From: a virus
Taxonomy: Duplodnaviria; Caudoviricetes
Length of the DNA: 64,000 nucleotides
IMG/VR virus record: IMGVR_UViG_3300033121_001895
Span: 38,912-102,911 of that record
Direction: 5' to 3' (one strand)
Shown in pieces: positions 3,745 through 64,000 of this stretch. The notes under the pieces were generated by a model. The model worked only from the letters and a program-made list of their open reading frames with translations. It searched no databases and had not been told where the DNA came from. How positions within the stretch are numbered: the first letter of the stretch is position 1; each line of letters begins with the position of its first letter. Both the position numbers and the translations under genes were made by a program.

Positions 3745-3746
3745 AA

Positions 3747-25002: not shown

Positions 25003-25395
25003 TTAAACGTTGTCAGCATCCGCCTTTGCCTGCATGGTGCTCAACTTGGCGAAAGCCTTTGTCACCGCCCGACGATTGTGAAACGCCTTTTGCGAAGCAT
25101 CGTCACGGTAGTGTTGTAGTCTGGTTTTGTGCCTGGCGACAAAAGCTTTATGCGCCCCATAGACCAGGTGTGCTTCGATCTGTAGGAAAGAATGAGGCTT
25201 CTTTTTAAGAGGGTCCGTCTGGGCAAAGCGAAGCTTGTACTCTTCGCCTATTTCCTGTCGGTCGAACAACTTCGCTAGATTAGCCTGTGTGATCGGCAGG
25301 TCTAGTCCGAACAAGCACCAAGGACGGTCGACGCGTCTGGTGCCGGCCTCCATCGTCCAATCCTGAATCGCTGTAATAACATTCTCGCCTCTCAT
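25003..25395 (-). CDS. hypothetical protein (start revised by TGATG overlap)
   Basis: ATG overlaps the sigma-factor stop codon. Confidence 0.6.
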   Translation of the reverse strand: MRGENVITAIQDWTMEAGTRRVDRPWCLFGLDLPITQANLAKLFDRQEIGEEYKLRFAQTDPLKKKPHSFLQIEAHLVYGAHKAFVARHKTRLQHYRDDASQKAFHNRRAVTKAFAKLSTMQAKADADNV

Positions 25396-26036
25396 CAGCC
25401 CTTCCATCCTTCCTCAATGCGCGCAGTGATTATTTTGACGCGGTTGGAAATCGTTGAAGGTGACGTGTTGAGCATCGCTGCTAGCTCATCGTTCGACAAG
25501 ATCGGTTTTCCGCCAAACCCGATCTTGTGCTCCATGATCACCTTATCCCGCTGCGGCAGATCAAAATAAACGAAATGCACCCAGTCGTCATTATTACCTT
25601 CAATGAACACGGGGGAGAAGGCCAGGTTGGACACGTTGACTTCTCTTTTGCGTGCCTGCTTTAGCCCGGAAATTTCTCCTACACTCATCCCGGTCGCCTG
25701 CGACACTTCTGCCAAAGAAGGGGAACGCCCAAGTTCGTTACGGAGCTCTTCTTCGGCTTGGTTCAGCCTGTGAATCTTGAACTGCTTGTTTTCCGGGACT
25801 CGTAAAATGCCTCCATACTTGGTGGAAGTACGGCTAAGTTTCTTCAATGAGTTTACGAGATGCGTACTAAACTTATTACCGGAAGCTGGGTCGAAAGACT
25901 CTGCGGCCTCACGCGCCAGTTTATACGCTTCTGCCAACACCACATGCACTGGCACGAATTTGGCATAGCGTGCGGCTTCGGACTCGATAAGCCTTTTATG
26001 CTCAGTAAGTAACTGGTCGACCTTCGGATTTTTCAT
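25395..26036 (-). CDS. phage sigma70-family sigma factor
   Basis: region 2 AAESFDPASGNKFSTHL, region 3 ELGRSPSLAEVSQATGM, region 4 LPQRDKVIM..GFGG..LSNDELAAML..S.STIS. Confidence 0.88.
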   Translation of the reverse strand: MKNPKVDQLLTEHKRLIESEAARYAKFVPVHVVLAEAYKLAREAAESFDPASGNKFSTHLVNSLKKLSRTSTKYGGILRVPENKQFKIHRLNQAEEELRNELGRSPSLAEVSQATGMSVGEISGLKQARKREVNVSNLAFSPVFIEGNNDDWVHFVYFDLPQRDKVIMEHKIGFGGKPILSNDELAAMLNTSPSTISNRVKIITARIEEGWKG

Positions 26037-36039: not shown

Positions 36040-36077
36040 CCGACAACTGACAAGTAGGTTACAACGCAGCCTGCCTG

Positions 36078-41869: not shown

Positions 41870-41875
41870 AGGAAT

Positions 41876-41904: not shown

Positions 41905-41934
41905 CAAAAAGGGACCAGCCTTTCGACTGGTCCC
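41903..41934 (-). terminator. intrinsic terminator after the major capsid gene
   Basis: GGGACCAGT-CGAAAG-GCTGGTCCC followed by TTTTTGTT. Confidence 0.85.
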
Positions 41935-41957
41935 CGATAACTGCGAACGAAGACTTC

Positions 41958-48852: not shown

Positions 48853-48853
48853 A

Positions 48854-49789
48854 TTAGTAGGACGGCTTTGAAAGCTCGTTGATTTTGTGTGCGGCCGGGT
48901 AAGCCAATGCACCAACGCTCGCACGGCCGAGCAAGCTCTTCAGTCTGGAATTTCTGATGATTGCACCAGCCGGCTGATTCTCCAACACATCTTGTTGAAT
49001 AAACGGAAATGCTGTAGTACCTGGGTTAGCTCGCTGTTGCAGAAGCTGCTTGATAACGTCTTCACCAGAAGTCCGACCTGCACCACCATCAAACATTTTC
49101 CCACGCAAAGAGCGCAAGGCGTCAGCAACAGCACTCTCTCCCGTCGCAACATTCAGACCCAAACGACGAAGCAGTGGCTTCTGGCTCCATTGACCTAGCG
49201 TCGACTGGTTGGCGGTCATACGGTCAATGATTGACCGGATGTCGTTTTGTCGACCACTGCTCAAAATCTCAGCAGGAGCTGCGCCATTAGGCTTAGAATG
49301 CAGGTCGATGAGCTCTTTGAGTTTTGTTTGCAGCTCGTCGATCGACTTGCCTCCCTGGGTGCCACCTTTACCAAAAATCGTCTTCCCTAACACCGTGCTG
49401 CCTGCGTTTTGGGCCTGCGAAACTACTGCATGACCGGCCGTGGCAATACCAGCACCAGCAAGCGCACGTGATCCTTCAGCGCGGTTTAGCAGTCTCCCCA
49501 ACCATCCTGCTCCTCCACCAGGTTGATTCGCATGTTGGTAGGCTGTGCCAAGACCGACACCACCAACGCCACCGAGCACACCTCCGAGAAGAAGGTTGCG
49601 CTTCATGTCGTTAGAGCGTGTCTCTTCATCTGGCTCGTTTGATAACGCAGAAACGCCGCCAAGAGAGGCAGCGCCCAAACCTGCACCGGCGAGACCGCCA
49701 ATTAGCTGTGGTTTGTATGCATCCCAAAATTTCGACAAGGTCGCTTTGGAAGGCATTGACGGGATTGCAGGCATCGAAGGCAAGGTCAT
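48854..49789 (-). CDS. glycine-zipper membrane-active protein
   Basis: LIGGLAGAGLGAASLGG and NLLLGGVLGGVGGVGLG forming a hairpin around an acidic loop. Confidence 0.68.
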   Translation of the reverse strand: MTLPSMPAIPSMPSKATLSKFWDAYKPQLIGGLAGAGLGAASLGGVSALSNEPDEETRSNDMKRNLLLGGVLGGVGGVGLGTAYQHANQPGGGAGWLGRLLNRAEGSRALAGAGIATAGHAVVSQAQNAGSTVLGKTIFGKGGTQGGKSIDELQTKLKELIDLHSKPNGAAPAEILSSGRQNDIRSIIDRMTANQSTLGQWSQKPLLRRLGLNVATGESAVADALRSLRGKMFDGGAGRTSGEDVIKQLLQQRANPGTTAFPFIQQDVLENQPAGAIIRNSRLKSLLGRASVGALAYPAAHKINELSKPSY

Positions 49790-49792
49790 AAA

Positions 49793-50401
49793 TTATGGCT
49801 GGTAAACAGTTTCCCTGGTTAAGTCAGTGGTCGTAGTATCCAATGCACGCAATGCAGTGAGCGCGGCTGCGACATTTGACTCGATTTGATTTACGTACAA
49901 CGTAGCCAGAGCAGACAAGGACGTATCGCCTGGAGCAATTGTATTGATACGACGGGTGTAAGGAAAACCCGACAAGAGCTTCACTTTTTGTGAAGGGTAG
50001 GTGGTGACGTGGCTACCGCTGAGGATACGCACCAACGTGTCGTTGGAATAACCTGTTCCTCCAGCAGAGACGGTAACGGAGGCGAGCTGGCCATTTCCAT
50101 TCAATACCGCCACAAAAGTAGCCCCACTGCCGGATGTTCCTGTAGTGCCGAAGGTGATGGCTTTCTGTGCACTGTATGTAAAGTTGGCACCGGGGGTGGC
50201 GACTGGTACAACCGTAATTGCTCCGCCAGCTATGGTCGGCGCGCCTAAGGTTGCATCTTGGAAAAAGGTACCACCTACCTCAATTTCCGGCTCACCAAAC
50301 TTCGTCATCAATTCAACATCCCGGCTGTCCGCCTCTAGAGCGAAGCGAATAAAAAGGTCCCCATTCTGATGACTCTGGATGACTCGTAGTTTTGTGCTCA
50401 T
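49793..50401 (-). CDS. virion structural protein with beta-rich insert
   Basis: GSGATFVAVL..GQLASVTVSAGGTGYS is a repeat type common in phage virion proteins. Confidence 0.6.
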   Translation of the reverse strand: MSTKLRVIQSHQNGDLFIRFALEADSRDVELMTKFGEPEIEVGGTFFQDATLGAPTIAGGAITVVPVATPGANFTYSAQKAITFGTTGTSGSGATFVAVLNGNGQLASVTVSAGGTGYSNDTLVRILSGSHVTTYPSQKVKLLSGFPYTRRINTIAPGDTSLSALATLYVNQIESNVAAALTALRALDTTTTDLTRETVYQP

Positions 50402-50404
50402 TGA

Positions 50405-51766
50405 TTACTTCTCCTCCTTGATCGGCTTACCGGTCTCCATTTGCTTTTGCTTGAGCAATTTGGTGTTAGCATCCATAAGCTGGGCACCATCAAAAGCAGT
50501 CATGGCCTGAGATGCGACCATTTGACGTAGATGACTACGGACAATTTCCTTCTCGCCAGAGAGCTCAGGGGCCAAGCGAATAAACTGCTCGTACGCGTCA
50601 GTCACACGCTTAGGCTCATAGGTCTTCAAAATGGGGTCCGCCACCATCAGGTTCTGAAGGAGTAACTTACGGTCAAGATTTCCTGAAGCTCCTGAACCTC
50701 CGGATGATGGTGTAGCTTCGCGTTTATATTGGTCAGCAAAAGCACTAAACAACGCACCAGGGATTCCACCAGCGATACCGGCTGCAGTCTTTTCACGCTC
50801 AGCGATCTTGATTTTTGCAGCACGCATCACAGGGTCGGTCTCTTCTTCCTCTGATGCAACTTTCTCCGGAGCGGGTTCATCGGTTGACGGTTCCTCAGCA
50901 GCATCCTGGCGCCGGCGATCGGCCAATGCCTGATAAGCTGTAGCACGTTTCACGTTGATCTCAGCTAAGTCAGTCGCGGCTTCAGCTAGTTTAGTGTTTG
51001 CCTCTACAAACGTTTCGGCTGCCTTGAGGAATTCTCCAAAGCGCAAAGTTTCTGGAGCATCATCGAACGCCACATACTTGGCGTCATGTTCCCCGCGCGG
51101 TTCTGTGCCACCAGCGGCCTTGTGCATCAGGTCCACATACGGCATGGCGTTTTCGCCATACCTGGAAAATACTTGCGACTCGAACTCGGCGAACGGAGTA
51201 CGAGCAGCGGCTTCCTTACTCCAGTGATTTACAAGGTTCGAGAATTTATTAGCTACCGCGAGCTTCGCGCCGATAGCTTCAGTGCGACAGTCGTCCAAAT
51301 GCTGCTCCATGTTCATTCGCGCGAAGCCAGCCTTCTCGCAAATACCCTGGTCAGACATCCTGCGTACTTCCTCCTGGACATTCGATAGCTTTGCCAGTTG
51401 CCCCTGCAGCTGGACATCGTGCTTCGCACGGCGAAAATTCGGTACTTCCTCTTCAACCATGGCGCCAGAAAACCACTGAGACTTCTTCTCGTTGATTGTA
51501 GGCTCAGCGTTCGGGAAAATCTCCGCGCTAACCTTCTGGGCGTCGACGATTGGAAAATCAACATCACGAGCAGCCGCGTTCTTACGGAAATGTTCGTAGG
51601 TCAGTGCCACGTTGATGACTTCACAGGCACGTTTGATGAAGTGGACGTTCAAGTCCATGTCACGGGCGGTCTTCACGACTGCCGCATGAGGCGGGAGCTT
51701 GTCCGAGTTTATCGAATGTACGATATCGTCGACAGCTGCCTTTAACAGTTTGTTGGGGTCTTGCAT
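50405..51766 (-). CDS. KxA-rich putative head core/internal protein
   Basis: 453 aa, helical, about 12 KxA motifs; small Gly-rich helix after EKTA. Confidence 0.7.
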   Translation of the reverse strand: MQDPNKLLKAAVDDIVHSINSDKLPPHAAVVKTARDMDLNVHFIKRACEVINVALTYEHFRKNAAARDVDFPIVDAQKVSAEIFPNAEPTINEKKSQWFSGAMVEEEVPNFRRAKHDVQLQGQLAKLSNVQEEVRRMSDQGICEKAGFARMNMEQHLDDCRTEAIGAKLAVANKFSNLVNHWSKEAAARTPFAEFESQVFSRYGENAMPYVDLMHKAAGGTEPRGEHDAKYVAFDDAPETLRFGEFLKAAETFVEANTKLAEAATDLAEINVKRATAYQALADRRRQDAAEEPSTDEPAPEKVASEEEETDPVMRAAKIKIAEREKTAAGIAGGIPGALFSAFADQYKREATPSSGGSGASGNLDRKLLLQNLMVADPILKTYEPKRVTDAYEQFIRLAPELSGEKEIVRSHLRQMVASQAMTAFDGAQLMDANTKLLKQKQMETGKPIKEEK

Positions 51767-51788
51767 AGCGTCAAATCCACTTACGATT

Positions 51789-51817
51789 ATGTTATTCGTT
51801 CAAGTCGACGAGTTCAA
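51789..51817 (-). promoter_or_regulatory. sigma70-like promoter
   Basis: TTGAAC-N17-TAACAT. Confidence 0.55.
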
Positions 51818-51819
51818 TC

Positions 51820-52902
51820 CTATTTTACCTTCGATAGATCAAACACCGTCCTGTAACGAGGCTCATTATCCTGGCGAGCCAATGAGGAAATAGCACTCTG
51901 AATAAGCTTGAGGTCTTCTGACTGCATTTCCTGTACCTTACCTTCGTTGAGCTCCTTGCTGATCTTCTGTACCTGCATCTCCAACAGCCTCTGCTCCTGC
52001 TGGCGCACTTTTACTTCTTCACGTTGTAGGTCGAGACGTACTAGGTCACCTACAACTCGATTGTAGATCAGGGCGTCACGCGGCGTCCTGGTGGCAAATT
52101 GTACGTTAAACGTGTTGGTCATCGCGGTCTTGGTCAGGTAATCCCTGACTGTCAACCTCTCACCATCATCAAGAAACGCTCCTGCTACCTGTGCCTTTAG
52201 TCCAAGAGGACCCAACTCATGCACACGCTTGTACAGAGCAAATTCATCTGGCTTAATATCGCCGTTGTTTACCCACTGAACGAGTGTCGCCCATTGCGCA
52301 ACAGGGTTGGCAGGCAACGCTGAGAAATCGAAGAAGAGCATCCGCAGCGCCGTGATCGTGCCAGGGCTGAAGTTCCATTCTTTGGCGATTTCGGCGTCTG
52401 GTACCTTCGCGAAGATCAAATGCCCAATATAGCGTTTAATCTGCTCGTAGTCGTCGTTCAAATGAAGACGCAGCGCGGCGTCCACATCTGCCGAATGTTC
52501 CAAGTTGGTGACATGAGCAACAATCTTCTTCAACCATGGGTCTGGCAGTCGGTCCAACTTCTTACCACTCCAACTGACCAGGTTCTCATACTGCTCGATA
52601 TTTTCTATGGTCAGTTTCGGCAGTCTCTGTTTCTTCCATGCGCGCTTCCAGGTAGTCAACAGCCGTTCAGCTAAGACGGCAGGAAGCCTACGGGAAAGAG
52701 TTTGTACTGACGAGGGAACGACATAGTTCACCCGGCAGTCCAGGCCTTTTTTCGTAAGACGGCGTAGGCAGCCCGCGTTGTCAACCTTCCGAGAACAGAA
52801 ACTGCGAAACCCGTACTTGTCGGGGTTTCGCAGGGCATCGTAACGCCATGCCGGACGTTGAAACGGGGTTCCTAACCTTCTGGTAGGAACACTCGCTCTC
52901 AT
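51820..52902 (-). CDS. hypothetical protein with HTH-like segment and coiled coil
   Basis: LIFAKVPDAEIAKEWNFSPGTITALRMLFFDF; C-terminal heptads. Confidence 0.65.
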   Translation of the reverse strand: MRASVPTRRLGTPFQRPAWRYDALRNPDKYGFRSFCSRKVDNAGCLRRLTKKGLDCRVNYVVPSSVQTLSRRLPAVLAERLLTTWKRAWKKQRLPKLTIENIEQYENLVSWSGKKLDRLPDPWLKKIVAHVTNLEHSADVDAALRLHLNDDYEQIKRYIGHLIFAKVPDAEIAKEWNFSPGTITALRMLFFDFSALPANPVAQWATLVQWVNNGDIKPDEFALYKRVHELGPLGLKAQVAGAFLDDGERLTVRDYLTKTAMTNTFNVQFATRTPRDALIYNRVVGDLVRLDLQREEVKVRQQEQRLLEMQVQKISKELNEGKVQEMQSEDLKLIQSAISSLARQDNEPRYRTVFDLSKVK

Positions 52903-52908
52903 AAGTCC

Positions 52909-53478
52909 TTAGCCTTGCGGTCCGCCGACAGGAGGTTTACCTGGCGGAGGCGTTGGTGGACCTGGAGGAGGTCCTCCGGCTTGGCCACCACCTGGAGGTC
53001 CGCCTGCTTGGCCGCCTCCTTGTGACAATAGCTGTTGCAACAGTGCAGGGTCGATCTGTCCACCGGGGCCTTCGACACCGCCACCTGGATCTTCTACGCC
53101 ACCGGCATCTCCGCCACCACCTTGCTGTGCTTCCAGCAATGCAACAACTGCAGCATGAAGCTTCTCTTCTGCTGAATTGCCGGGTAGGGCTTCCAAAAGC
53201 TGCTGGATCTGTTGCTCTTCCGGCGCGCCTTCGGGGACAAACCCTGGCCCCGGGCCAGCAACAGGATCGACTTCTCCGCCACCGTCGTCACCAGGAGGTC
53301 CTCCTGGCGGCATGGCTCCGGCGGCATACTTCATCCATGCGACCTTTTCATTTGCGGAAAGAGGGGACGCGGCAACCGCACGAACAAACCCTAGCGCGAA
53401 CGCGCGCTTGGTACGTGGTTTATTATCTGGCATACTTGGGAATTTGAATGACTTGGATTGGGCTGTGTAAAACGACAT
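52909..53478 (-). CDS. Pro/Gly/Gln-rich low-complexity protein
   Basis: AAGGAG leader; AFALGFVR...MKYA module followed by GGPP repeats. Confidence 0.68.
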   Translation of the reverse strand: MSFYTAQSKSFKFPSMPDNKPRTKRAFALGFVRAVAASPLSANEKVAWMKYAAGAMPPGGPPGDDGGGEVDPVAGPGPGFVPEGAPEEQQIQQLLEALPGNSAEEKLHAAVVALLEAQQGGGGDAGGVEDPGGGVEGPGGQIDPALLQQLLSQGGGQAGGPPGGGQAGGPPPGPPTPPPGKPPVGGPQG

Positions 53479-53486
53479 GGTACTCC

Positions 53487-53918
53487 TTACATTGTTGGTG
53501 CGGGGGCAGCGGCCGGAGTCACCGGCTTATTCAGTACGCTGTTCACGGAGCTTGGAGGGGCCGAGCTCACTGAATTATTTACGCCTCCCAACCCGGTCTG
53601 GTTGATGTTGAAACCGAAATTCGAACTGGTCGCCTGCCCGGAACCTAAGCTTCCAAGCCCGCCTCCTGAGCCGAGGCTACCTGCCGCGCCTAGTCCACCG
53701 GATGCCCCAGGATTATTACCCGGCATTGGGAAAAGCTTGGAAGGTTGCATAGAGTCCACAATCGGAGGATTTGGATTCACTGGCTTTGGTGGCGAAAATG
53801 ATGGTGTCTGAAAAGCACCAGTCTGCATGGCGTATTTCAATACGTCAAGTGCCTCACCGAGAGTGCAGCCATTCGCTTGCGCCTCTTTCAGGAAGCCGTT
53901 GATAAATGCTTGAGTCAT
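53487..53918 (-). CDS. Gly/Ser/Pro-rich low-complexity protein
   Basis: N-terminal AFINGFLKEAQANG...LKYA module followed by a disordered tail. Confidence 0.68.
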   Translation of the reverse strand: MTQAFINGFLKEAQANGCTLGEALDVLKYAMQTGAFQTPSFSPPKPVNPNPPIVDSMQPSKLFPMPGNNPGASGGLGAAGSLGSGGGLGSLGSGQATSSNFGFNINQTGLGGVNNSVSSAPPSSVNSVLNKPVTPAAAPAPTM

Positions 53919-53921
53919 AAA

Positions 53922-56147
53922 TTATCCTCCCTCGCTTGTGTCTTGCTCGTTTACGTTAATTGAGACATCAGGGAATTTGCGTTTCAAGAAGACTACCAGG
54001 TCGCCCAGGTTTTTGAAAACATTCTTAATCAGCTCGATCAACTCAGGGAGCTCGTCAACGCCGTACATCTTCTGGAACTTGTCGGTTTCCCAGTAGATCA
54101 TAAACAGCATGCGCCCGAGCTTATCAAGGGTATCTACGAAGTCAGGTAGGTAGCTGATAACCTTGCTGGTCGGGTCGATGTACTTGGACAACATCGCAAT
54201 CGCGCTGGTGTCAAAGATTTCCTTCTGCCCACTGGCTGCCATTTGTGCAGCTCCTTGGGCATCCTGCTTTGCGCGCCCCCAACCTCCCTGGTCAGCTTCC
54301 GTTGTAGCAATACCACGCTGCGTTGGATCGCCTTGGTAGTAATGATCGGTCGGGGCAACAGCCTGATATGGAATGCCGAAAGTTGTTGGCTGCCCCAGCT
54401 CATTGTAGGACTCGGGCTCATCATGCAACGTGTGCGTGAAATCACCAGTCACAGCTTTCTTAATATAGCCAGTAACCGAGCGTTCACCTGCAAGCGAATC
54501 AACCAACTCCACAGCGTCGGCTTCATCGAGGCCAAAGTCAATGACCATGCCGATCTTCGCCTTGATCGGGTCGTCATATTTCTTCATGGCGGCACCAACA
54601 CTGGCGAAGTATTCGCTGCCATTGCTGCGTGCCGTAAATGGAAAAATGCCGTTCTCTCGCAGGAAACTTGTGAGGTCACTCAACGTACCTGGACGACCCT
54701 GGCGCAAGCGCTCGTCTTCTTTACGTGCAGCCTCGAGTTTCTTAGCACGGGATTCAGCGGTATCCTTGCTATCCCATTCGACATTGGTGTAAGTCGATGT
54801 GAACACCTCCAACAGCTTAAAGCCTTTCGGCACGTAAACAACGTTTCCGCGGTATTCGAGGGAGTCACTTTCCCGTTTTGTAAATACCAGCGTGATGGCG
54901 TGGCTATCTTTTTGCTTGGGGAAAAATTGGTTTGCTTGCGCCCAACGACGGCTATCTCTCTCTTGAGCGTAAGACGTCGGACCGCAAGGAGCCTCGCAAC
55001 CGCCACCGTACTCAGGTTCCACCTTTAGTCGACGGAGTTTACGATCGTCCACATAATTCATCATTACGCGAAAAGGCTCAGTCGACTTGAGCTGTTCGTT
55101 GATCAAGATGTAGGTTCGGTCAAACGAGGTGCAAGCCTCGACAGGATTCTCCAGCATCCGATGCACGACGGAGTAATCAGCTACAGTGATTACCTCGCGA
55201 ACAAACACTGGTGCGCCATTTCGTACAATATGGCATTGGCCTGGACGTACAGCCTGCAAGTCTATCACGAGTTGTTTATCCGTCCTGAAATTAGCGTACA
55301 AAGACTGAGGCTGAAGGAGCAGGCCGTAACGCAGCGTGCCGAGGGAGGTAAGATATGAGTAAAACCCTGGCTGCGAAGGATTTGTAAACTTGTCAGTGTA
55401 CGAGACCAGACCGTACTGGCTTTTCGCATCTTCCTTCCGGCGGTCAACGATAGCATAACCGTTTGTCATCGCCTTGGCCTTAAGCTCCGGCGGTGCACTC
55501 TTGGCGGCATAAACCTCTACCGCGCTAGGAGCGGCTGTCTTTTCGTTGGGCTTCAAAGCTGCCGCGATCCGCTCAGGCTCGTAAAACCGGTGTAGAGCTT
55601 CGGTAAACTCAGGGTGCTCGTTCATTAGCCCCCAGGCAGCGGCCTTAATGTTGTCGTCACCATCTGCAATAAAATCAATCACAGAGGCGTAGGAGATACG
55701 CCCGGTGCGAGGAGGAAACACCAGATCACGCATATCTGCGTTCGGGGTCTGCTTCTCGATGTCCTTGCGAGATTGCTCAGAAACGCCACCAAGACCTGTG
55801 GTATCGTCCTTCAAAAACAACTCAGCATAGTCCTCATTTAACGGGTAAAACTGGTTATTGTTTCTGGAATACATGACATCCAGATCCTTCACCTTACCGT
55901 TGATGAAGAATGCTGGAACGTAAATAATCTGCCCGTTGTCGGACTTGAAGCCAAACACGCCTACGGCCTTTGTACCATCAGAAGCCTTGGTAACAATCTC
56001 GAAGCCGACCATGTGAGGGAGCAGATTGTACAGCTTGCTCTGCAGCTTGTCGTAGGCTAGCTGGAAAAAGCCCTGCTCAAATTGCTGGTCAGGGGAACCT
56101 TGTGGAGGTGCTCCTGCTGCTGCGGCCTTGATTGTTTTCATGTCCAT
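53922..56147 (-). CDS. large hypothetical protein, probably virion associated
   Basis: 741 aa; N-terminal IKAA and internal EKTAA; next to the RNAP genes. Confidence 0.72.
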   Translation of the reverse strand: MDMKTIKAAAAGAPPQGSPDQQFEQGFFQLAYDKLQSKLYNLLPHMVGFEIVTKASDGTKAVGVFGFKSDNGQIIYVPAFFINGKVKDLDVMYSRNNNQFYPLNEDYAELFLKDDTTGLGGVSEQSRKDIEKQTPNADMRDLVFPPRTGRISYASVIDFIADGDDNIKAAAWGLMNEHPEFTEALHRFYEPERIAAALKPNEKTAAPSAVEVYAAKSAPPELKAKAMTNGYAIVDRRKEDAKSQYGLVSYTDKFTNPSQPGFYSYLTSLGTLRYGLLLQPQSLYANFRTDKQLVIDLQAVRPGQCHIVRNGAPVFVREVITVADYSVVHRMLENPVEACTSFDRTYILINEQLKSTEPFRVMMNYVDDRKLRRLKVEPEYGGGCEAPCGPTSYAQERDSRRWAQANQFFPKQKDSHAITLVFTKRESDSLEYRGNVVYVPKGFKLLEVFTSTYTNVEWDSKDTAESRAKKLEAARKEDERLRQGRPGTLSDLTSFLRENGIFPFTARSNGSEYFASVGAAMKKYDDPIKAKIGMVIDFGLDEADAVELVDSLAGERSVTGYIKKAVTGDFTHTLHDEPESYNELGQPTTFGIPYQAVAPTDHYYQGDPTQRGIATTEADQGGWGRAKQDAQGAAQMAASGQKEIFDTSAIAMLSKYIDPTSKVISYLPDFVDTLDKLGRMLFMIYWETDKFQKMYGVDELPELIELIKNVFKNLGDLVVFLKRKFPDVSINVNEQDTSEGG

Positions 56148-56168
56148 AGTTCCGGGTCGTTAAAGCCA

Positions 56169-56197
56169 ATCATATGCAATCTAGAAGGAAAGTGCAA
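56169..56197 (-). promoter_or_regulatory. sigma70-like promoter
   Basis: TTGCAC-N17-TATGAT. Confidence 0.65.
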
Positions 56198-56210
56198 TAA
56201 TTTGCTTGCA

Positions 56211-58067
56211 CTATGCCTTGGGTTGACCGAAGCCAACACCGTAGGCCAGCCCGGGTACAGGCGAAGCCCCTTTTAGGTCACTGAAGGCTCCTGTATTTAC
56301 TGCGTGCAGGATCTTTCTTTCCAGGTTTGCCGTATAAAGCTGGTGCATCCAGTCAGGCTCGTGCTCTGGGATGGCGTCGAGCCGTTGCATCTCTGGGATA
56401 AAGGAAGGAGGTTGGCTGCTAACTAACACTTGGTCAATTCCCCTGGCGCGTAGCTTATCGATGATCTTTCTCGTAATGCGCGTACCGATCGTAAAATGCA
56501 AAACTGGCTGTTCGAGGTACTTGTTGTAAGCCAAATCAATACGTACCTTGGCCGCATCACTCTTTGGCTGGTAGTCCTTTTCCACCGATTGGTAAGATAC
56601 AATTTCTCCAGGTAGATGCTCGCCGAGACCTTCGTTATTTGTAATGCGCACGTGATCGATCATGGCCTTTGCCAACACATCGAAATTCCGATGGTTGATG
56701 CCTCCCATGCCTGAATCGTCGAAGGCCCTTTTCAAGGCGTGCGAGAAGTATTTACGTCCTTCTCCAACTCCTTTTAACCGAACGATGTCTGCTGGATTGA
56801 TGATACCGTCAGACAATACGTCACCTGCTTCTACCTCATCGCCTACCTTGACTTTCAGTCCAAAGCCCGTTGGGACGTAATACTCATCACTATTGATATG
56901 AATGTAATGTCCACCTTGGGGAGCCACACGGATCTCGTTAACAGTGCCGTCGTGCTCGGCTACAGCCGCCTTGTCCTTGAACGTCTGTGGAATAGTGGCC
57001 AACTGTTTAACCAGATCAAAACCAGAGGCGAGGTTAGGACCTGTCGCAGAGCCTGACGTATGCTTCAGAGACAGCTGTCCTTGCGCAAGAGGTTCGCCCA
57101 GCGTGGATGACGACGTAATACCAATGAAGTCACCGACTTGTGGTAGACCTTTTTCGCGTTTACCAGCGCATAGCTGACAAATGGCATTATGATGATACCT
57201 GCGGGAAGATTGACAGGTGATTGGAGAACGAACAACAATCACCGAGACGTTTTTATTGCGAAGATCACTGAGCATCTTGGCGGTGACTTCGTTGTTCTTA
57301 TTGTACCCATTTATTGGATGGGCAAGGTATGTACCGACAGTCTCCCGGTTATCCGTTGAAGCTTCAACGCCATTGTCTGTTCCGCAATCATGCTCCTCAA
57401 TTCGAAGAGTCATGGTGGCGCGAGACATCTGCTTGGAAAAATAGCCAGCATCGGCAACAGCCAACTTCTTGGCAACCTCTCCTTGACGAGAGCCGAATGT
57501 GGAAGCCAGATACTCGGGGAGATTGAGCCCGTCGGCAAAAGACTTCTTCAACGGAAAATCAATAAGTGGGCGACCCGTATTATCCTGCACCAGCACGGGA
57601 GCAAACACTGTCTGCATATACTGGACAGGAGAGCCACGCGATCCAGACTTGATGATCTTTGCCAACGTCTGGTTATTAGTCACACCAACGTCCACAAGCT
57701 CTTTGGTGACCTCCTTTACAAAGGCCTGGTACAGGTCGTTAGCCTTGGACTCATACCTCTTCTGATTCTTTTCGACTTTGCGTAGCTCCTCCAACTTTGC
57801 ATCTAGTTCAGCAAACTTGGCCTTCTTGTCGATAGGCGAGCGTAGGTCGGTCAATTTCACTGTAGAGCCCAGACGGGTCGACACCTCAAACCCTAGTCGT
57901 GCGAGCTCGCTGACGATCTTGTTGTACTGCTCGGGGTGTTTCTCCGCCAGTAAGTTAAACAAGGTCGCATTACCTTTTTTGTCCAGCTCGTTTCCATCGA
58001 TGAAAGCGTGCATGTCCTCGGGCAGATGCGCCTTTAACAAGAGCTTGCCTACAGTGGTTGTATCCAT
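56211..58067 (-). CDS. phage RNA polymerase beta' subunit, C-terminal half
   Basis: SGSRGS, bridge helix EYLASTFGSRQG..ADAGYFSKQM, Zn site DCGT/RSPITC/ICQLCAG, trigger loop GEPLAQGQLSLKHTSG, INHRNFDVL. Confidence 0.93.
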   Translation of the reverse strand: MDTTTVGKLLLKAHLPEDMHAFIDGNELDKKGNATLFNLLAEKHPEQYNKIVSELARLGFEVSTRLGSTVKLTDLRSPIDKKAKFAELDAKLEELRKVEKNQKRYESKANDLYQAFVKEVTKELVDVGVTNNQTLAKIIKSGSRGSPVQYMQTVFAPVLVQDNTGRPLIDFPLKKSFADGLNLPEYLASTFGSRQGEVAKKLAVADAGYFSKQMSRATMTLRIEEHDCGTDNGVEASTDNRETVGTYLAHPINGYNKNNEVTAKMLSDLRNKNVSVIVVRSPITCQSSRRYHHNAICQLCAGKREKGLPQVGDFIGITSSSTLGEPLAQGQLSLKHTSGSATGPNLASGFDLVKQLATIPQTFKDKAAVAEHDGTVNEIRVAPQGGHYIHINSDEYYVPTGFGLKVKVGDEVEAGDVLSDGIINPADIVRLKGVGEGRKYFSHALKRAFDDSGMGGINHRNFDVLAKAMIDHVRITNNEGLGEHLPGEIVSYQSVEKDYQPKSDAAKVRIDLAYNKYLEQPVLHFTIGTRITRKIIDKLRARGIDQVLVSSQPPSFIPEMQRLDAIPEHEPDWMHQLYTANLERKILHAVNTGAFSDLKGASPVPGLAYGVGFGQPKA

Positions 58068-58069
58068 AA

Positions 58070-58798
58070 TTACTGGAATCGTGCAGGGGTCAGATCCAGG
58101 ACGTTAAGACTGTTCGAGACATCAAAGTACTTGGCCTTCGCCAGGAAATGATGTCCGTCTACGATCTGCTCGTTTACGATGAGGACGTACTTATCCTTGG
58201 CTTTCTTAAAGAACGCGTCACGTGCCTTTTCACGCTCCGCACTCGTCATGCCATCAAGTTCTTTTTTTACCGCCTTCGTTGCTGCTTCATAGTTCTGAGG
58301 GTCTGCGCGGTCAACCAGCTCACGCACCATCATACCGTAGTGCACCACCGTTGGGTTCTTCGCCTTCTCCGGCAGAAAGCGTTTTGCGTCTTCCTTTACC
58401 TTTTCAGGAAGATCTGACACTCGTACATCTTTGATATAGGCAGCCATTTTAATCTTGGTAGTGCTTGCGCGTTTAAGAAGCGTCCACATGCTCACCTTGA
58501 TAGGGGCACCGTCCAGCTTCCCGAACGTTTCCGGCGTTTCGGGGTTAGGGAGAACCAGCTCAGGCATGGCCTTTTGCAGCATGATGTCCTCGAGACCCTT
58601 TATCTTATTGGTCTGGGAAGGCAGCCCCTGGTTCAGTTCAGGAGCCATGACCTCGTCGTCCTCATGTCGTTGAATCGAGGAGTTCGCTTGGTCAGGTGAC
58701 AGCTGCTGCAACAGGCGTACCATGTCTCCTTGAAGTGCAGGGTCAGTCGTATCGACTGCTGCCTTCAACAGGTAACGTCGCAGTAATGGAAAGCTCAT
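58070..58798 (-). CDS. protein with C-terminal ParB/Srx-like domain (start revised to MSFPLL)
   Basis: VLIVNEQIVDGHHFLAKA; KAA/KRA/KMA motifs precede the domain. Confidence 0.6.
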   Translation of the reverse strand: MSFPLLRRYLLKAAVDTTDPALQGDMVRLLQQLSPDQANSSIQRHEDDEVMAPELNQGLPSQTNKIKGLEDIMLQKAMPELVLPNPETPETFGKLDGAPIKVSMWTLLKRASTTKIKMAAYIKDVRVSDLPEKVKEDAKRFLPEKAKNPTVVHYGMMVRELVDRADPQNYEAATKAVKKELDGMTSAEREKARDAFFKKAKDKYVLIVNEQIVDGHHFLAKAKYFDVSNSLNVLDLTPARFQ

Positions 58799-58799
58799 G

Positions 58800-59456
58800 T
58801 TAGTAGACTCCACCGCCACCCATCATATTTGGTCCACTTCCGGCCATGGCGGCTTCTTGCTGCTGCTGTTGCTGCTTCATCTGCTCCTGCTGCTGGCGCT
58901 TCTGTTGATCCTCAACTGCCTTTTGCTGCATCTGCTGCTGCTTCATCTGGCCCTTCTGGATGTGCTCCTGCACCTTCAGCGTGGACTGTGTGGCTTTGCC
59001 TCCCGATACCAAGTCGAGTAGGTCACGCACGCGCAAAGTAATCGTGGACTGCTCGAGGTCAGTTGGAGGACCAGAACTCTGTACTCGCTCGCCCTGCTGC
59101 TGCCCACCAGCTTGCTGCTGGCCGGCCGCAGATGGATCGCCGCCTTCTCCTCCTTGACCGCCCATTTGCTGCATGACCTGTTGAAGGGCCTGCTGCTGCT
59201 GGTCTGGTGGGAGCTGTTGAATTTGCTGGGCAATTTCTGGTGGAAGCTGTTGAAGGAGGCTGTCCATGCCTCCGCCTCCACCCCCGCCGCCGCTATCTTG
59301 CTGCCCGCCTTGAGGCTGCTGCTGGCTGTCCTGCTGCCCACCACCCTGTTGTCCTGACGGTTGTCCGCCACCACCTGGTTGTTTATTGGGGGCAGGGACG
59401 AAAGCTGTTTTGACGACAGCATCAATCTCTTTAAGCACTTGGCCGATTTTCTTCAT
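58800..59456 (-). CDS. Gln/Gly-rich low-complexity protein
   Basis: N-terminal helix ending VKTA, then polyQ/polyG tracts. Confidence 0.7.
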   Translation of the reverse strand: MKKIGQVLKEIDAVVKTAFVPAPNKQPGGGGQPSGQQGGGQQDSQQQPQGGQQDSGGGGGGGGMDSLLQQLPPEIAQQIQQLPPDQQQQALQQVMQQMGGQGGEGGDPSAAGQQQAGGQQQGERVQSSGPPTDLEQSTITLRVRDLLDLVSGGKATQSTLKVQEHIQKGQMKQQQMQQKAVEDQQKRQQQEQMKQQQQQQEAAMAGSGPNMMGGGGVY

Positions 59457-59655
59457 ATTCAGGTTTCTCCCATTCGATGATATTGGTCACCAGACCTTCA
59501 AGGTCTTTCTTGATTTGAGTAAGACGGCCTTGTTCTGGTTTGCCGCTTAGTGCATGCTTGCCGTCGTCTATTTCACAGAGTTCAGTAAGAGCAGCGACCA
59601 ACCGCTCGTGTTTTTGTTCGGCGGTTAGGGTATTCCACACTTCTTTGGTTATCAT
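59431..59655 (-). CDS. small hypothetical protein (start revised to MITKEVW)
   Basis: 74-aa ORF filling the gap after the RNAP gene. Confidence 0.55.
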   Translation of the reverse strand: MITKEVWNTLTAEQKHERLVAALTELCEIDDGKHALSGKPEQGRLTQIKKDLEGLVTNIIEWEKPEYEENRPSA

Positions 59656-59666
59656 AACAGTTGGAA

Positions 59667-62660
59667 TTACGAGGGGCAACCCACCTTTACCTTCTCACCA
59701 ACATGCAGTTTGCCTTGATGAAAGGCGTCCACAACCTCCTTCTGTGTCTTGAAGGAATGCACTGTTTCAGAAGGTGTCTTCTCCGTCGACATCTGGAATA
59801 ATCCAAGGGCGGACTCGTTTGATGGAACGAACATCGGTTGAAAGGTCTTCGGTGAGATCAGGCTCTTGCTTGGTAGCATTTTAGCGATCACTTCCTGCTT
59901 GGCTTCCTCACTTGCAGGTACATTGATATTCAATTGATCGCCATCGTTATCGGCAGCCAACCCCTTAAATACCAGAGGGTTCAGCTTGATCGTCTTGTCT
60001 CGTTTATTGACATTCGGGCGTAAGAAGAACCCGGTCAGGTTGAACTTATGCAATGACGGGTCACGTGAAATAATAGCAGGGCGCTCCTTCAGTTCTGCAT
60101 GCAATGCCTCCAAAGCCAGTGGGTTACGCGTCTCGATATACTCTTGTGCCTTTGTAGCTGGTACGCCTTTTTGTACAAGACGACGAGAGATAAACGGCAG
60201 ATAGACCTTCCACAATGTGTCAATAGGTACACTGGCCTCGTCTAGGTCTAGAAACGCGCTTGGAGTCAAAACTGCACGTCCGACAAGGTCCATTGGCTTA
60301 TTGACTACTTTTGACTGAAACATGGTAGTCTTCGCGGAACCGCCCCGAATACCCAAAGTAGTCGAAAGAAGCCCCTTGAGGCCCTTTTCCTGATTCTTTA
60401 CAACAATAGGGTCTCCTAGCCCATAGACAGCTTTTACAGCGTCGTATTGCTTACCCTTCAATCCATCGACCACATGCGCCGGGAGCTGAGAAGTGTCTTT
60501 TTTCAGCTCGTTCGACGTCATGAGCAAATCTTTGTACAGATAGTTCACATCAGCCGCCAGCGAGAAATCTCCTTGGGCCAGTGCCGGACGATAGATCGCC
60601 GGGATGATGGGTACCTTGGTCAACATCAAGTCTCGCGGGTGAAGACCGTTTGTCTTGAGTGCTGTTAAGAATGTAACAAGTTTAAGGGCGTCCTCCCTCT
60701 TGGTCTTTTTACCAGTCTTAAGGTATTTGGTGTATTCGGCGAGTTTTTTGTCCAAGTCGACCGAATTCAATTTTTCACCAATCTGACCGGATTTCACCAA
60801 TTCCATATATCCGTCTTTGGTGACCTCCAGCAGCTTGCGAAGGAAATCCTCGGAAACCGGATTAGGGATGGGTTGAGCCAACTCCACATGGTTATAGCGC
60901 TCACCAAGCACGCCTACCTTTTCCGGGTCAAACAACCCGCCCTTCTCCGGGATAAGTTTGTCCCCCTTTACTTGAAAGGTCAAAGGCTCATGGATCGGAC
61001 CGCCTGAAAGACGAGTCACGTCCTTGTCCGTCATTGGCAGGATGTGGAACTTGGTATCTTTCTTCGTAACGTTGATACCTGCGCCTTGTAACGAAGCCAG
61101 GAACTTATTGAAGATGAATGGTACCTGCGGACTAGGTACAGGTAGACCGAGTTTTACACGACGCCAATACTCGTCGTTCTTAGTCGCCTTGATTGTAGCG
61201 ATGTCGCGTAGCACAGCTGTTGCGCCGTGCGACAGCAAGGCGGCGGTACCAAGGTTACCAATACGTTTAGCCGACTCATGTTCAGCTTTGGTTGGTTGCA
61301 TATCCCACGAGTAACCAACACCTGCCGAACGGTGGGATTCCTTATCTTCAGCGATATGTACAAGACGAGTATAGTAGAGAGGACCGGTGAGTACTTCGAT
61401 ATTACGCCCAGTGACTGGGTCGTACAACTCTTCGGTATCTTTCAACCCGTGTTTCTTCAGCTCGCCGATCGTCGCCTCAAGGGTAGACTCATTACGAAAA
61501 TGAGGCATCTTAACTGGATGTCCCAGCTTTTCGGCAACCTTACCCATCGCCAGAGTATTCACCAGGGCCGGGGCCACACGAGAGGTGATACTCATGGAGT
61601 TGAGGATAATGTCAACAGGCTTGCCGTCTTTGTCCATCGGGGCACGAGAGTCAGGTACGATTGAACCGACAACACCTTTTGCACCGAATACACAGCTCAC
61701 CTTGTCACCCACCTGTAGGGTACGACGAGTCTTCACATTCACCGTGACATACTCGCTCGTTACAGAAACATCCACTACTTCACCAGGAGACTCATGGTCC
61801 CATATTACAGCCTGGTCATTAAATGCGTTCTTCAGGACACTAGACAAACGACCAAGAGCCATGTCTGTAGACTTCAGCGCTTTCGGGGCTAAAGCCAGAA
61901 TAACCGGATCACCATAACTCACCACGGTGCCTTTCTTTACGACACCGTTCGGCTCAATTGTCGCAAGCTGGTTGTTCAGAAATCGGTTGGCAAAAATGGC
62001 GACATACTTATTCTTACCGATCTCAACACCCATTCGCGCTTCCATGCGCATACGGAAAATCTGCTCGGCTTCGAGCTTCTTTGCACCAGACTCCGTAACC
62101 ACAAAGGCGTCCTCGAAGTTGGATGAACGATACGGCATCACAGCGGTACGGAGATTTGTGCCCATCGCCATCACACCGTTCTCGTCTGTATAGTTTGACA
62201 CCGCCAACAGCTCCCCTTTTTTCACCTTATCCCCTACTTTGACTTTCGGTGTGTAATGGATAAAGGTCTTTTGCCCAAGGTTATGGTTGTGGTAGAGGTC
62301 AAAGGTTTTTACACCATCTGACGTCTTGATCTTGATTTCGTGATCCGTCACCTCTGTAACGGTACCATCGACGTCGCTCTTCTGGCTCAAGTAGTTCTGC
62401 CCGAGCTGCTTAACAAAGGAGTCGTCAGCCATGCGAGCCACACTCTGAACCAACGGTGGTTGGCGATGCACGAGGGAGATGGCTTGCAGTGTGGCTTTAG
62501 AACCGATCAAGATACGACCGCCCGACACACCACCAAGGCCAGTAACCAGGTTAGCCGGGTAAGAGAAGAAGTCTTTGGTGGACGCAAACTCATAGTCGTG
62601 CCCTTCATCGGCAGGAGTTTTCTTCAAGCGTCCTTTATCGAGGACCGTAATTTCGCTCAT
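59667..62660 (-). CDS. phage RNA polymerase, fused beta C-terminal and beta' N-terminal subunit
   Basis: beta motifs NFEDAFVV, GDKV...GAKGVV, PVDIILNSMSITSR, RLVHIAEDK; beta' motifs GGLFD, HVELAQPIPNP, VPIIPAIYRP, GRAVLTP, RDPSLH, catalytic LAADNDGDQ. Confidence 0.95.
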   Translation of the reverse strand: MSEITVLDKGRLKKTPADEGHDYEFASTKDFFSYPANLVTGLGGVSGGRILIGSKATLQAISLVHRQPPLVQSVARMADDSFVKQLGQNYLSQKSDVDGTVTEVTDHEIKIKTSDGVKTFDLYHNHNLGQKTFIHYTPKVKVGDKVKKGELLAVSNYTDENGVMAMGTNLRTAVMPYRSSNFEDAFVVTESGAKKLEAEQIFRMRMEARMGVEIGKNKYVAIFANRFLNNQLATIEPNGVVKKGTVVSYGDPVILALAPKALKSTDMALGRLSSVLKNAFNDQAVIWDHESPGEVVDVSVTSEYVTVNVKTRRTLQVGDKVSCVFGAKGVVGSIVPDSRAPMDKDGKPVDIILNSMSITSRVAPALVNTLAMGKVAEKLGHPVKMPHFRNESTLEATIGELKKHGLKDTEELYDPVTGRNIEVLTGPLYYTRLVHIAEDKESHRSAGVGYSWDMQPTKAEHESAKRIGNLGTAALLSHGATAVLRDIATIKATKNDEYWRRVKLGLPVPSPQVPFIFNKFLASLQGAGINVTKKDTKFHILPMTDKDVTRLSGGPIHEPLTFQVKGDKLIPEKGGLFDPEKVGVLGERYNHVELAQPIPNPVSEDFLRKLLEVTKDGYMELVKSGQIGEKLNSVDLDKKLAEYTKYLKTGKKTKREDALKLVTFLTALKTNGLHPRDLMLTKVPIIPAIYRPALAQGDFSLAADVNYLYKDLLMTSNELKKDTSQLPAHVVDGLKGKQYDAVKAVYGLGDPIVVKNQEKGLKGLLSTTLGIRGGSAKTTMFQSKVVNKPMDLVGRAVLTPSAFLDLDEASVPIDTLWKVYLPFISRRLVQKGVPATKAQEYIETRNPLALEALHAELKERPAIISRDPSLHKFNLTGFFLRPNVNKRDKTIKLNPLVFKGLAADNDGDQLNINVPASEEAKQEVIAKMLPSKSLISPKTFQPMFVPSNESALGLFQMSTEKTPSETVHSFKTQKEVVDAFHQGKLHVGEKVKVGCPS

Positions 62661-62667
62661 TTGAGTA

Positions 62668-62696
62668 ATGCTACACTACCGGGTTTCGAATTGCAA
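62668..62696 (-). promoter_or_regulatory. sigma70-like promoter for RNAP, probably leaderless
   Basis: TTGCAA-N17-TAGCAT-N7-ATG. Confidence 0.65.
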
Positions 62697-62719
62697 TTTC
62701 ATCTGTACCTGTCTACCAT
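62691..62719 (+). promoter_or_regulatory. divergent sigma70-like promoter sharing the palindromic -35
   Basis: TTGCAA-N17-TACCAT. Confidence 0.55.
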
Positions 62720-64000
62720 GAAGCTATCTATGGGGACTCTAATGCGTTCCACGCCAAGCTCAAGACAAAACACTCTGCCGTTCAAGGCCGCAACAGTTGC
62801 AGTCGACCTCGACGGCACCTTGGCGAAGCATATATCTGCCAAGAAATTTGATCCAACGCGCATAGGTCCTCCCGTACAAAAGATGATGGACAAGGTGAAA
62901 CGTTACCTTGAACGAGGCAAGGATGTGGTACTATTTACGGCTCGCGCCTCGGACCCGAGGAATGTACCTCCTGTGCGTGCCTGGCTGGATCGCCATAACC
63001 TAAGCAAGGTGAAGATCACAAATCAAAAAACTCCTGACATTGAAGTGATCTACGACGACCGAGCCAAGGGAGTACACAAAAACAAAGGCACGATCAAAAG
63101 TGGTTCTGCTTTCGACAAATTAGCCGCGCTTCCTGGCGTTTCCCTCAAGCCGCACCAACAACGGGTAGTCAATCGTCTTAAGCAACCTGGGACCACCGGG
63201 CTGCTGGCTCAACATGGGCTTGGTTCGGGCAAAACGCTTTCGTCTATCGCTTCCTGGGACGCCTTGGGGCGCCCACGAACCGCTGTGATCGTACCTGCAG
63301 CCTTGCAGGAGAACTACCGAAAAGAGCTGACAAAATGGGTGGGGCAGGTTCCTCCCAACGTCAATATCATGAGCCAACAACGCGTGGCTCGTCAAGGGGG
63401 CCTTTTAGGGCCTGCTCCAGAGTTGATGATTGTCGATGAACAGCACAAGGCCAGGGAACAAAGCTCAGCTCTGCGGGCGGCATTGGCCAACATCAAGGCT
63501 AAAAAAAAGCTTCTATTGACTGGTACGCCAATCTACAACCACCCTCAAGACATTGCCGCAACCGTCAACTTGGCGGCCGGTCGCACCCTTTTACCGACAG
63601 ACCGCGCGTCGTTCAACGAACGATACGTCGCCACCGAGAAAGTAAATCCGCCGCTGTTACAGCGTCTCATGGGTGTACGCCCAGGCACAAAACAAGTGCT
63701 CAAGAATCGGGGCGAGCTTGGGCGGATACTAAGGCAGTACGTTGACTATCACCCGAACTCGACTCAAGGCTTCCCTCGTTCATCTGAGGAAACGATAAAG
63801 GTGCCTATGGGTGGAGCTCAAACCGACATCTACAACGCCATCATGGGCAAGGCTCCTCGCTGGGTGCGTTGGAAAGTGAAAGCCGGGCTACCTCCAGGTA
63901 AAGGTGAGTTCGAGGCTATGCGCGCATTCCTTACTGGAGCGCGTCAGGTGTCCAACACCAACCGCGAGTTCACCCGATCCAAAGAAGAAGCTGCGAAGAT
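62718..64000 (+). CDS. HAD phosphatase fused to SNF2-family helicase, partial (true start may be 62730 or 62742)
   Basis: manual translation: VAVDLDGTLA, FTAR, ITNQK, IYDDRA (HAD), then LKPHQ, HGLGSGKT, IVDEQH, LLLTGTPIYN (SF2/SNF2); open to the window end. Confidence 0.88.
   Translation, partial: MKLSMGTLMRSTPSSRQNTLPFKAATVAVDLDGTLAKHISAKKFDPTRIGPPVQKMMDKVKRYLERGKDVVLFTARASDPRNVPPVRAWLDRHNLSKVKITNQKTPDIEVIYDDRAKGVHKNKGTIKSGSAFDKLAALPGVSLKPHQQRVVNRLKQPGTTGLLAQHGLGSGKTLSSIASWDALGRPRTAVIVPAALQENYRKELTKWVGQVPPNVNIMSQQRVARQGGLLGPAPELMIVDEQHKAREQSSALRAALANIKAKKKLLLTGTPIYNHPQDIAATVNLAAGRTLLPTDRASFNERYVATEKVNPPLLQRLMGVRPGTKQVLKNRGELGRILRQYVDYHPNSTQGFPRSSEETIKVPMGGAQTDIYNAIMGKAPRWVRWKVKAGLPPGKGEFEAMRAFLTGARQVSNTNREFTRSKEEAAK

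Follow-up and report, generated by a model that had tools for sequence, protein, structure and literature searches.

The stretch of DNA analysed here (the window) comprises 64,000 nucleotides (nt), positions 38,912 to 102,911 of the IMG/VR virus record IMGVR_UViG_3300033121_001895 (Duplodnaviria; Caudoviricetes). It is the final 64 kb of a 102,911-bp record, and the end of the window is the end of the contig. Between positions 56211 and 62660 lie the genes of a multisubunit RNA polymerase with an unusual partition: the C-terminal half of beta is fused to the N-terminal half of beta', and the C-terminal half of beta' is encoded separately. The elements of the enzyme are the following:

59667..62660, minus strand: fused gene P0001, 997 amino acids (aa), with Pfam Rpb2_6, Rpb1_1 and Rpb1_2
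61017..61052, minus strand: beta/beta' junction, codons of residues 537-548, without a long linker
59937..59954, minus strand: beta' metal-binding motif ADNDGD, residues 903-908 (codon coordinates)
56211..58067, minus strand: beta' C-half gene P0002, 618 aa, with Pfam Rpb1_5 (E 4.6e-17), beginning MDTTTVGKLL

Pfam analysis of P0001 revealed RNA_pol_Rpb2_6 at residues 100-458 (E 9.6e-48), Rpb1_1 at residues 663-732 (32.9 bits, under Pfam's cut-off of 39.7) and Rpb1_2 at residues 858-926 (E 3.7e-14). Domains of both beta and beta' are thus present, and both double-psi barrels therefore reside in a single chain, as had been proposed for this 997-aa protein in a first-pass annotation of the DNA. 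The beta C-half extends approximately over residues 17-545 and the beta' N-half over residues 548-997. Alignment with solved structures pairs residues 17-264 with E. coli beta 647-894; the segment that matches E. coli beta' 179-521 comprises residues 621-965. The best solved matches are a bacterial beta (E 9e-41) and a bacterial beta' (E 5e-37), which bears out the earlier description of the motifs as cell-like. The beta alignment stops near residue 534-547 and the beta' part starts immediately; an AlphaFold2 model built on 15 family members places strands and a helix across residues 529-551, with predicted local distance difference test (pLDDT) values of 62-87 for this block. A Foldseek search with the model returned bacterial beta chains as top matches. 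The open frame around P0001 is 1002 aa in all.

The lysines of the beta barrel are found within GDK and GAKG (residues 318-329). Alignment A1, which holds 15 family members, shows no variation at K320, K328, D904, D906, G907 or D908, and we take K320 and K328 to be the catalytic lysines of the beta barrel. About 75 residues of P0001 stand where bacterial beta' has its first 175 or so. The sole cysteines of the chain are at positions 323 and 995 and, since none falls in that region, the N-terminal zinc ribbon of beta' is absent from P0001.

The second protein, P0002, provides the C-terminal module of beta' (bridge helix, trigger loop and second zinc site), its residues 3-359 aligning with E. 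coli beta' 571-958. Cysteines at positions 228, 285, 297 and 300 fall in the stretch of the second zinc site, which in our own reading they would constitute. The first residue of the C-piece of cyanobacterial beta' aligns with P0002 residue 13-20, so that the phage cut falls 12-19 residues before the cyanobacterial one, in good agreement with the closeness to the cyanobacterial split claimed at first. The accompanying statement that phiKZ enzymes are split at other positions proved wrong for beta', since a review describes the phiKZ-type beta' as split after the barrel, at the same site as in cyanobacteria (Sokolova 2020). As for the description of the beta' C-half as starting at MDTTTVGKLL and lying beyond three unrelated genes, the start and the three open reading frames (ORFs) are as stated; two of the three keep their place in relatives, and the word "unrelated" is doubtful.

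The first-pass annotation also reported the N-terminal beta lobes as absent. They are indeed not in the window; the contig end, not a true absence, very probably explains this, because the record is a fragment (estimated to be about 50% complete) that stops 1.3 kb upstream of the fused gene. Arash, a cultured Salmonella phage of the same family, encodes a fused protein, gp206, of 1525 aa, of which P0001 matches residues 484-1525, and the first 483 residues contain Rpb2_3. The N-part of gp206 was used to locate the beta-N genes in complete relatives, and two small genes were found. Beta-N1 (about 220 aa) corresponds to Arash residues 23-224, maps to cyanobacterial beta 82-195 and is located on the opposite strand. 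Beta-N2 (about 230 aa) corresponds to Arash residues 230-471, carries Pfam Rpb2_3 and matches E. coli beta 404-597. Among records with the form of about 995 aa, beta-N1 is present in 12/12 and beta-N2 in 11/12, the single miss being G008, a fragment too short to reach the expected place. Beta-N1, beta-N2 and the fused chain tile gp206, no gap exceeding 12 residues, and in relatives the beta-N genes are situated 8-36 kb upstream of the fused gene. In the closest relative (G011:C1, also L048; RXKB01000001.1; 226,528 bp), whose fused protein is 89.6% identical to P0001, beta-N1 and beta-N2 lie 13.5 kb and 26.5 kb beyond the start of the fused gene. This genome is collinear with window positions 47461-64000, with protein identities of 41-90%. 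In the beta-N2 of another relative, G001, the residues aligned with E. coli beta positions 516, 526, 529 and 531 are E, L, K and T, hand-counted against an E. coli chain with the Y526 variant. We assume that these four E. coli positions are rifampicin contacts, and the polymerase may thus be insensitive to rifampicin.

The fusion is widespread. A word-indexed search scored 8000 candidates, of which 1937 proteins reached E <= 1e-10, and approximately 106 of the 120 best relatives listed are 983-1032 aa long, carry the same three Pfam domains and are 52-91% identical, so the fusion is not due to chance. The contigs of the relatives measure up to 293 kb, and the longer proteins carry intein domains. 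An exhaustive search of representatives at 50% identity gave 1468 proteins at E <= 1e-30, cellular enzymes necessarily included. The best 150 representatives all have E < 1e-175, and 144/150 are at least 1298 aa long. In P0132, P0134, P0141, P0145, P0164 and P0171 (1447-1471 aa), P0001 matches from residue 452-485 onwards, which is the layout of Arash. The join of beta-C to beta'-N is a hallmark of a large metagenomic phage family of at least 150 clusters at 50% identity, with the whole of beta in most chains, and the three-way cut of beta is the mark of one clade that includes the window. Variants of the layout were observed as well: the P0128 chain begins inside beta-N2, P0155 has an N-terminal 2H phosphoesterase and P0222 a C-terminal AAA_18. 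Beta'-C has its own gene, located a few genes downstream, in every locus examined.

In the phage record collection the fused layout was found in Arash and three Vibrio phages alone (annotation was compared for Arash and D69). The remaining phage records that reach 80% coverage or more lack annotation and show two or three joined pieces. The one inspected, the Enterococcus record L068 (OR846602.1), has two neighbouring genes of the usual kind, of 1207 and 1217 aa. Moraphages were set aside because they are without a polymerase. L069 (CAKLQH020000005.1) is a "phage" record that is a piece of bacterial chromosome with rplA-rplJ-rplL-rpoB-rpoC. Both L068 and L069 are bacterial chromosome pieces under phage names and may pass as "phage RNA polymerase" in searches. 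L049 (CAYMQQ010000001.1; 211,238 bp) is, like L048, a probable phage genome of the group; for L049 this is judged from its 85%-identical fused protein and beta'-C only. L048 and L049 are filed in bacterial metagenome-assembled genomes (MAGs) as Dependentiae and Sediminibacterium, labels that are unreliable for the host. Inteins (LAGLIDADG, Hint) occur in the polymerase genes of many relatives (P0012, P0068, P0073, P0079, P0114, P0137 and P0155; L006:16828-19167; L027:16499-19348). In L006-L009 the intein is located exactly at the DxDGD site (about residue 904), with a stop between two parts of the fused gene, and the beta'-C of L006 has an additional Peptidase_M23 match.

The relation to cellular enzymes was examined in a 38-row tree of the beta' N-region (IQ-TREE; LG+C20 with posterior mean site frequencies, PMSF; 367/441 columns kept). 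It included the window, 7 relatives of the form of about 995 aa, Arash, D69, L027 and 20/150 representatives (hand-picked, mostly intein-free), along with 4 bacterial beta' (Bacillota, Bacteroidota, Dependentiae and Pseudomonadota) and 3 phage beta' (Rhizobium TM30, Vibrio Va2 and E. coli EP_H11). The 31 family rows are split from all others with support of 100/100, and the bacterial rows group into a single clan (100/99). The window itself belongs to a 9-row clan of forms of about 995 aa (100/100), nested among the long forms; fission of an ancestral full fusion would be the parsimonious reading of this polarity. Inner nodes are weak (24-69) and the bootstrap is not fully settled. A quick tree of the beta region repeats all three groupings. 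In the beta'-N region the window is 23-28% identical to the four bacteria, which are 57-65% identical among themselves, and in the beta-C region the respective values are 26-30% and 59-63%. Such identities, next to the values among bacteria, exclude a recent capture from those phyla, and the recent capture from a bacterial clade that had been considered as an alternative is contradicted, for the four phyla sampled, by the 100/100 branch as well. The proposal of a deep-branching phage lineage is upheld in that the family stands apart from four bacterial phyla, but four bacteria fix no branching depth. The polymerases of the cultured phages used for comparison, Rhizobium phage RHph_TM30 (L070), Vibrio phage Va2 (L071) and E. 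coli phage EP_H11 (L072), represent further layouts: their beta' is either unsplit, with 1127-1192 aa, or present as an N-piece of 522 aa, and they group apart from both the fusion family and the bacteria.

A sigma factor is encoded elsewhere in the window, among baseplate and tail genes:

25395..26036, minus strand: sigma-70-family factor P0268, 213 aa, with Pfam Sigma70_r3 (E 1.9e-8) and a helix-turn-helix

P0268 aligns to regions 2 to 3 of SigA, and an orthologue is present in 10/10 related records, that of Arash being gp10. No orthologue of the second Arash sigma factor, gp196, was found in 5 records. Alpha (PF01000) and omega (PF01192) were detected in 0/9 records by searches that match 14/14 control genomes; the search for alpha equivalents proposed earlier has thus found none, within these 9 records and with PF01000. 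Each barrel is present in one copy per genome in 7/7 genomes. Concerning the virion, the Arash report lists mass spectrometry counts of 3516 spectra for gp206 (the most of all proteins, exceeding the major capsid protein), 1210 for gp216, the beta'-C protein, and 467 for gp10, with 100% coverage of the latter; its authors propose a role in early transcription.

The genes and gaps around the two polymerase genes were also inspected:

59431..59679, minus strand: helical ORF of 82 aa (possibly 74), immediately following the fused gene, place kept across the clade
58800..59456, minus strand: Q/P/G-rich low-complexity ORF of 218 aa with a conserved helical segment, place kept between the fused gene and beta'-C
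58070..58819, minus strand: ORF of 249 aa, in near relatives only (3 distinct homologues including the window's own, plus G011 with 71% identity)
53922..56147, minus strand: gene of 741 aa directly after beta'-C, conserved, homologue of Arash gp218 (annotated structural protein)
62661..62718, no strand assigned: divergent gap between the fused gene and the helicase gene, with TTGCAA-17 nt-TAGCAT on the minus strand at 62668-62696, 7 nt before the start codon (pattern match only)
56148..56210, minus strand: gap after beta'-C, with a hairpin at 56191-56212 and the promoter-like TTGCAC-17 nt-TATGAT at 56169-56197, before the 741-aa gene
62719..63998, plus strand: SNF2-type helicase gene with Pfam SNF2-rel_dom and ResIII, truncated by the contig end (start 62719 by our own reading)

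The order of fused gene, small ORF, Q-rich ORF, beta'-C and 741-aa structural homologue is conserved in relatives. The 82-aa ORF has 16 distinct homologues at the equivalent position in related loci and the 218-aa ORF has 20; as both hold their position across the clade, they may belong with the polymerase, and the 82-aa ORF is a candidate accessory factor. None of the three ORFs between the polymerase genes has a Pfam or PHROG match, a comparison of the 82-aa ORF with the Atlas gave no lead (best score 0.77), and the profile of the 741-aa protein matched no solved structure. Environmental contigs of 3/4 runs compared carry a 9-base in-frame length variant at 59275, inside the 218-aa ORF, which fits a repeat-like, fast-changing region. 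The helicase gene is divergent from the fused gene, and its orthologue in G011 begins 31 nt from the fused gene of that genome.

The pattern TTGNNN-N16-18-TANNNT occurs 45 times on the coding strand of the window, with 8 occurrences in 2,272 nt of intergenic gaps against about 1.6 expected; 7/8 of these intergenic sites have a 17-nt spacer. Such promoter-like sites fit a sigma-70-type holoenzyme, which could be that of the host or that of the phage, the two being indistinguishable in this respect. A terminator scan of positions 53000-64000 gave no excess over shuffles. Elsewhere in the window, GC-rich hairpins followed by T runs in the gaps 7087-7134, 11605-11667, 35993-36077 and 41870-41957 resemble intrinsic terminators; one follows the gene at 7135-8169 and another lies between convergent genes at 11605-11667.

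Nearly all genes of the window are carried by the minus strand. PHROG matches identified the following virion-related genes:

4006-5739: terminase large subunit
36871-39345: tail sheath
47461-48924: prohead protease (weak match)
49793-50401: head closure (weak match)

Other PHROG matches in the window concern an RNA ligase, a baseplate wedge and a tail fibre. Given these matches, the polymerase genes are embedded in a block of virion genes, and their reported location among head genes is confirmed. The source is an uncultured phage with a contractile-tail gene set, and the genomes of near relatives are about 210-225 kb long. A 531-aa protein encoded at 1161-2756 matches PHROG 8638 and has an ATPase-like C-half. 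The RNA ligase (PHROG 968) lies at 7135-8169, and the virion list of Arash likewise contains RNA ligases. Stretches free of listed ORFs are found at 8730-9211 (482 nt) and 3745-4005 (261 nt) in an otherwise tightly packed genome. Runs from river, freshwater, wastewater and activated sludge, belonging to 9 studies, contained near-identical DNA, and the phage record collection contained none. One contig from a DNA run extends about 5.8 kb beyond the end of the record. A scan of viral contigs with the single protein returned no relatives, whereas an alignment-based scan did find them.

Overall, the observation made in the first-pass annotation is confirmed and the unusual partition is real, while its interpretation is right in outline and partly supported. 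We propose that the phage encodes a bacterial-type core of four polypeptides, namely beta-N1 (about 220 aa), beta-N2 (about 230 aa), the 997-aa fusion and the 618-aa beta'-C, in which the covalent join would hold both active-site barrels in one chain. The tether plausibly substitutes for the alpha dimer and omega as assembly aids, which were undetected in these genomes. The core would use the conserved sigma-70-type factor of the phage (25395-26036) at promoters of the -35/-10 type and, by analogy with the mass spectrometry of Arash, core and sigma would be packaged in the virion for early transcription. This explanation as a whole appears probable to us. For its parts, the four-piece architecture and catalytic competence are very likely; that the core works with the phage sigma is favoured by a smaller margin of confidence, and for the packaging of the polymerase in the virion of the window phage, which is argued from Arash, we see the chances as even.

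Several observations weigh against this explanation. The model of P0001 is only moderate (pLDDT 67, predicted template modelling score 0.44). No beta-N gene was detected in the 102,911-bp contig with the Arash beta-N, Pfam Rpb2_3 or phmmer searches with closer beta-N proteins. The absence of alpha and omega refers to two Pfam models, which a diverged or non-homologous substitute would escape. The case for the virion proceeds via Arash, whose polymerase proteins are 33-39% identical to those of the window, and the Arash virion list counts 116 proteins, including ribonucleotide reductases and RNA ligases, with the authors allowing for carry-over of abundant proteins. The phage sigma could equally redirect the host core. 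A generic sigma-70 promoter scan of positions 53000-64000 found 10 sites against 7.9 +/- 2.7 in shuffles, that is, no excess. Finally, three RNA libraries made from wastewater in one study contain contigs that cover the region; these may reflect DNA carry-over and are no proof of transcription.

The same four-piece enzyme could be left out of the particle, with the host polymerase reading the early genes, those of the phage polymerase among them, from sigma-70-like promoters, and the phage enzyme and its sigma the middle and late ones. The -35/-10-like site directly before the fused gene and the others in further gaps agree with this scheme, as does the long same-strand run with structural genes, typical of late expression, and the carry-over in their virion preparation that the Arash authors allow may be added. 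However, in Arash gp206 exceeds the major capsid protein in spectra and gp10 is covered completely, and independence from the host at the early stage would require carrying in the one polymerase set that each genome has. We consider an unpackaged enzyme rather unlikely. It is also conceivable that the pieces are not self-sufficient and assemble with host alpha and omega, or that the sigma mainly redirects the host core. The lack of an alpha or omega homologue in 9 records speaks for such a dependence, the enzyme is bacterial-like enough for docking of host alpha to be conceivable, and phage sigma factors normally act on the host core according to reviews. On the other hand, the phiKZ- and AR9-type enzymes are described there as functioning without alpha and omega, the identity to bacterial beta and beta' is just 23-30%, and the sigma is kept alongside the polymerase in 10/10 genomes and was found together with it in Arash virions; a reliance on host partners therefore seems to us improbable.

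That the fusion is an artefact of assembly or gene calling, or a decaying recent capture of host rpoB/rpoC, is already contradicted and has next to no chance of being correct. The window does derive from a metagenomic fragment, with the N-terminal beta part outside the contig, but independent assemblies of many origins contain the same uninterrupted frame, the catalytic residues do not vary, and the family is 23-35% identical to bacteria (57-65% identical mutually), on a 100/100 branch.

A four-piece core with its own sigma, packaged in the virion, would have wider implications. Tentatively, and with more doubt than confidence, we suggest that a very large, almost unstudied phage group (about 180-225 kb) brings into the cell a complete, sigma-dependent, bacteria-like holoenzyme, whose catalytic subunits are tethered and which hence needs no alpha or omega. 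It would represent a third kind beside the phiKZ type and mReC, alignable and rootable against cellular enzymes, with boundaries that were re-cut and intein-invaded many times. Reviews of phage transcription describe sigma factors as missing from phages that encode a multisubunit polymerase, and phages with a sigma as users of the host polymerase; the fusion family breaks this divide, as polymerase and sigma occur together in 10/10 genomes. A natural beta-beta' tether with loss of alpha and omega also bears on how a two-barrel core assembles without the universal platform. Placement of the phiKZ-type enzymes in the RNA polymerase tree has not been achieved according to a review, and the fusion family could help to place phage polymerases there, since its sequences align well with the bacterial enzymes. 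In addition, whole phage genomes of the group are filed in bacterial MAGs, where their counterparts of rpoB and rpoC could lead marker-gene taxonomy astray. As a cultured member, Arash, exists, these ideas are directly testable.

Among known systems, the same join of beta-C to beta'-N, with a separate beta'-C of about 606-609 aa, is present in Arash (gp206 and gp216) and in the Vibrio phages D69, D181 and D148. Our search of the open-access literature found no described beta-beta' fusion in phages; in the Arash paper the proteins go by the names beta and beta', and neither "fusion" nor "fused" appears in the main text. The Arash-type phages resemble the window in having a single polymerase set, a sigma of the gp10 type and a structural gene of the gp218 type after beta'-C. 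Unlike the window clade, which cuts beta twice more and disperses the pieces, Arash (1525 aa) and D69 (1527 aa) keep the whole of beta in the chain.

A beta C-terminus tethered to the start of beta' is familiar from the natural fusions of Helicobacter and Wolbachia and from the engineered rpoB-rpoC of E. coli. These show a join compatible with activity, between two whole subunits and with alpha and omega kept, whereas the window clade cuts beta' after the barrel and beta twice. The split beta' of cyanobacteria and plastids (gamma and beta') is cut in the same surface region as that of the window, yet in cyanobacteria beta is whole and separate, and alpha and omega are present.

The phiKZ- and AR9-type enzymes share with the window a split phage enzyme without alpha or omega and a beta' cut after the barrel, at the cyanobacterial site. 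Reviews place the beta and beta' pieces of the phiKZ type on separate chains, in two sets (virion and non-virion) and with no recognisable sigma homologue; the window family differs in its covalent beta-beta' join, its one set and its sigma-70-type factor. None of the 60 solved matches listed for the polymerase proteins is a phage polymerase, and the window enzyme is much closer than the phiKZ type to bacterial enzymes. The mReC, metagenomic Caudovirales with deep-branching beta and beta', have polymerase genes that resemble those of cells, lie on large phage contigs and form branches separate from the cellular ones (Weinheimer and Aylward 2020; PMC7481178). In six rows of a table there, beta has 999-1563 aa and beta' 902-1038 aa; the two are separate proteins, adjacent or nearly so in 5/6, and the filter applied demanded at least 800 aa for each of beta and beta' (PMC7481178). 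The sole polymerase protein of at least 800 aa in the window holds parts of both subunits, and is set apart by these descriptions of mReC. Finally, crAss-like phages, YonO and the tape-measure fusion of P23-45 have both barrels in one polypeptide, as in the window. These single-chain phage polymerases are described as highly diverged from cellular enzymes, whereas the window enzyme aligns over its full length with bacterial beta and beta'.

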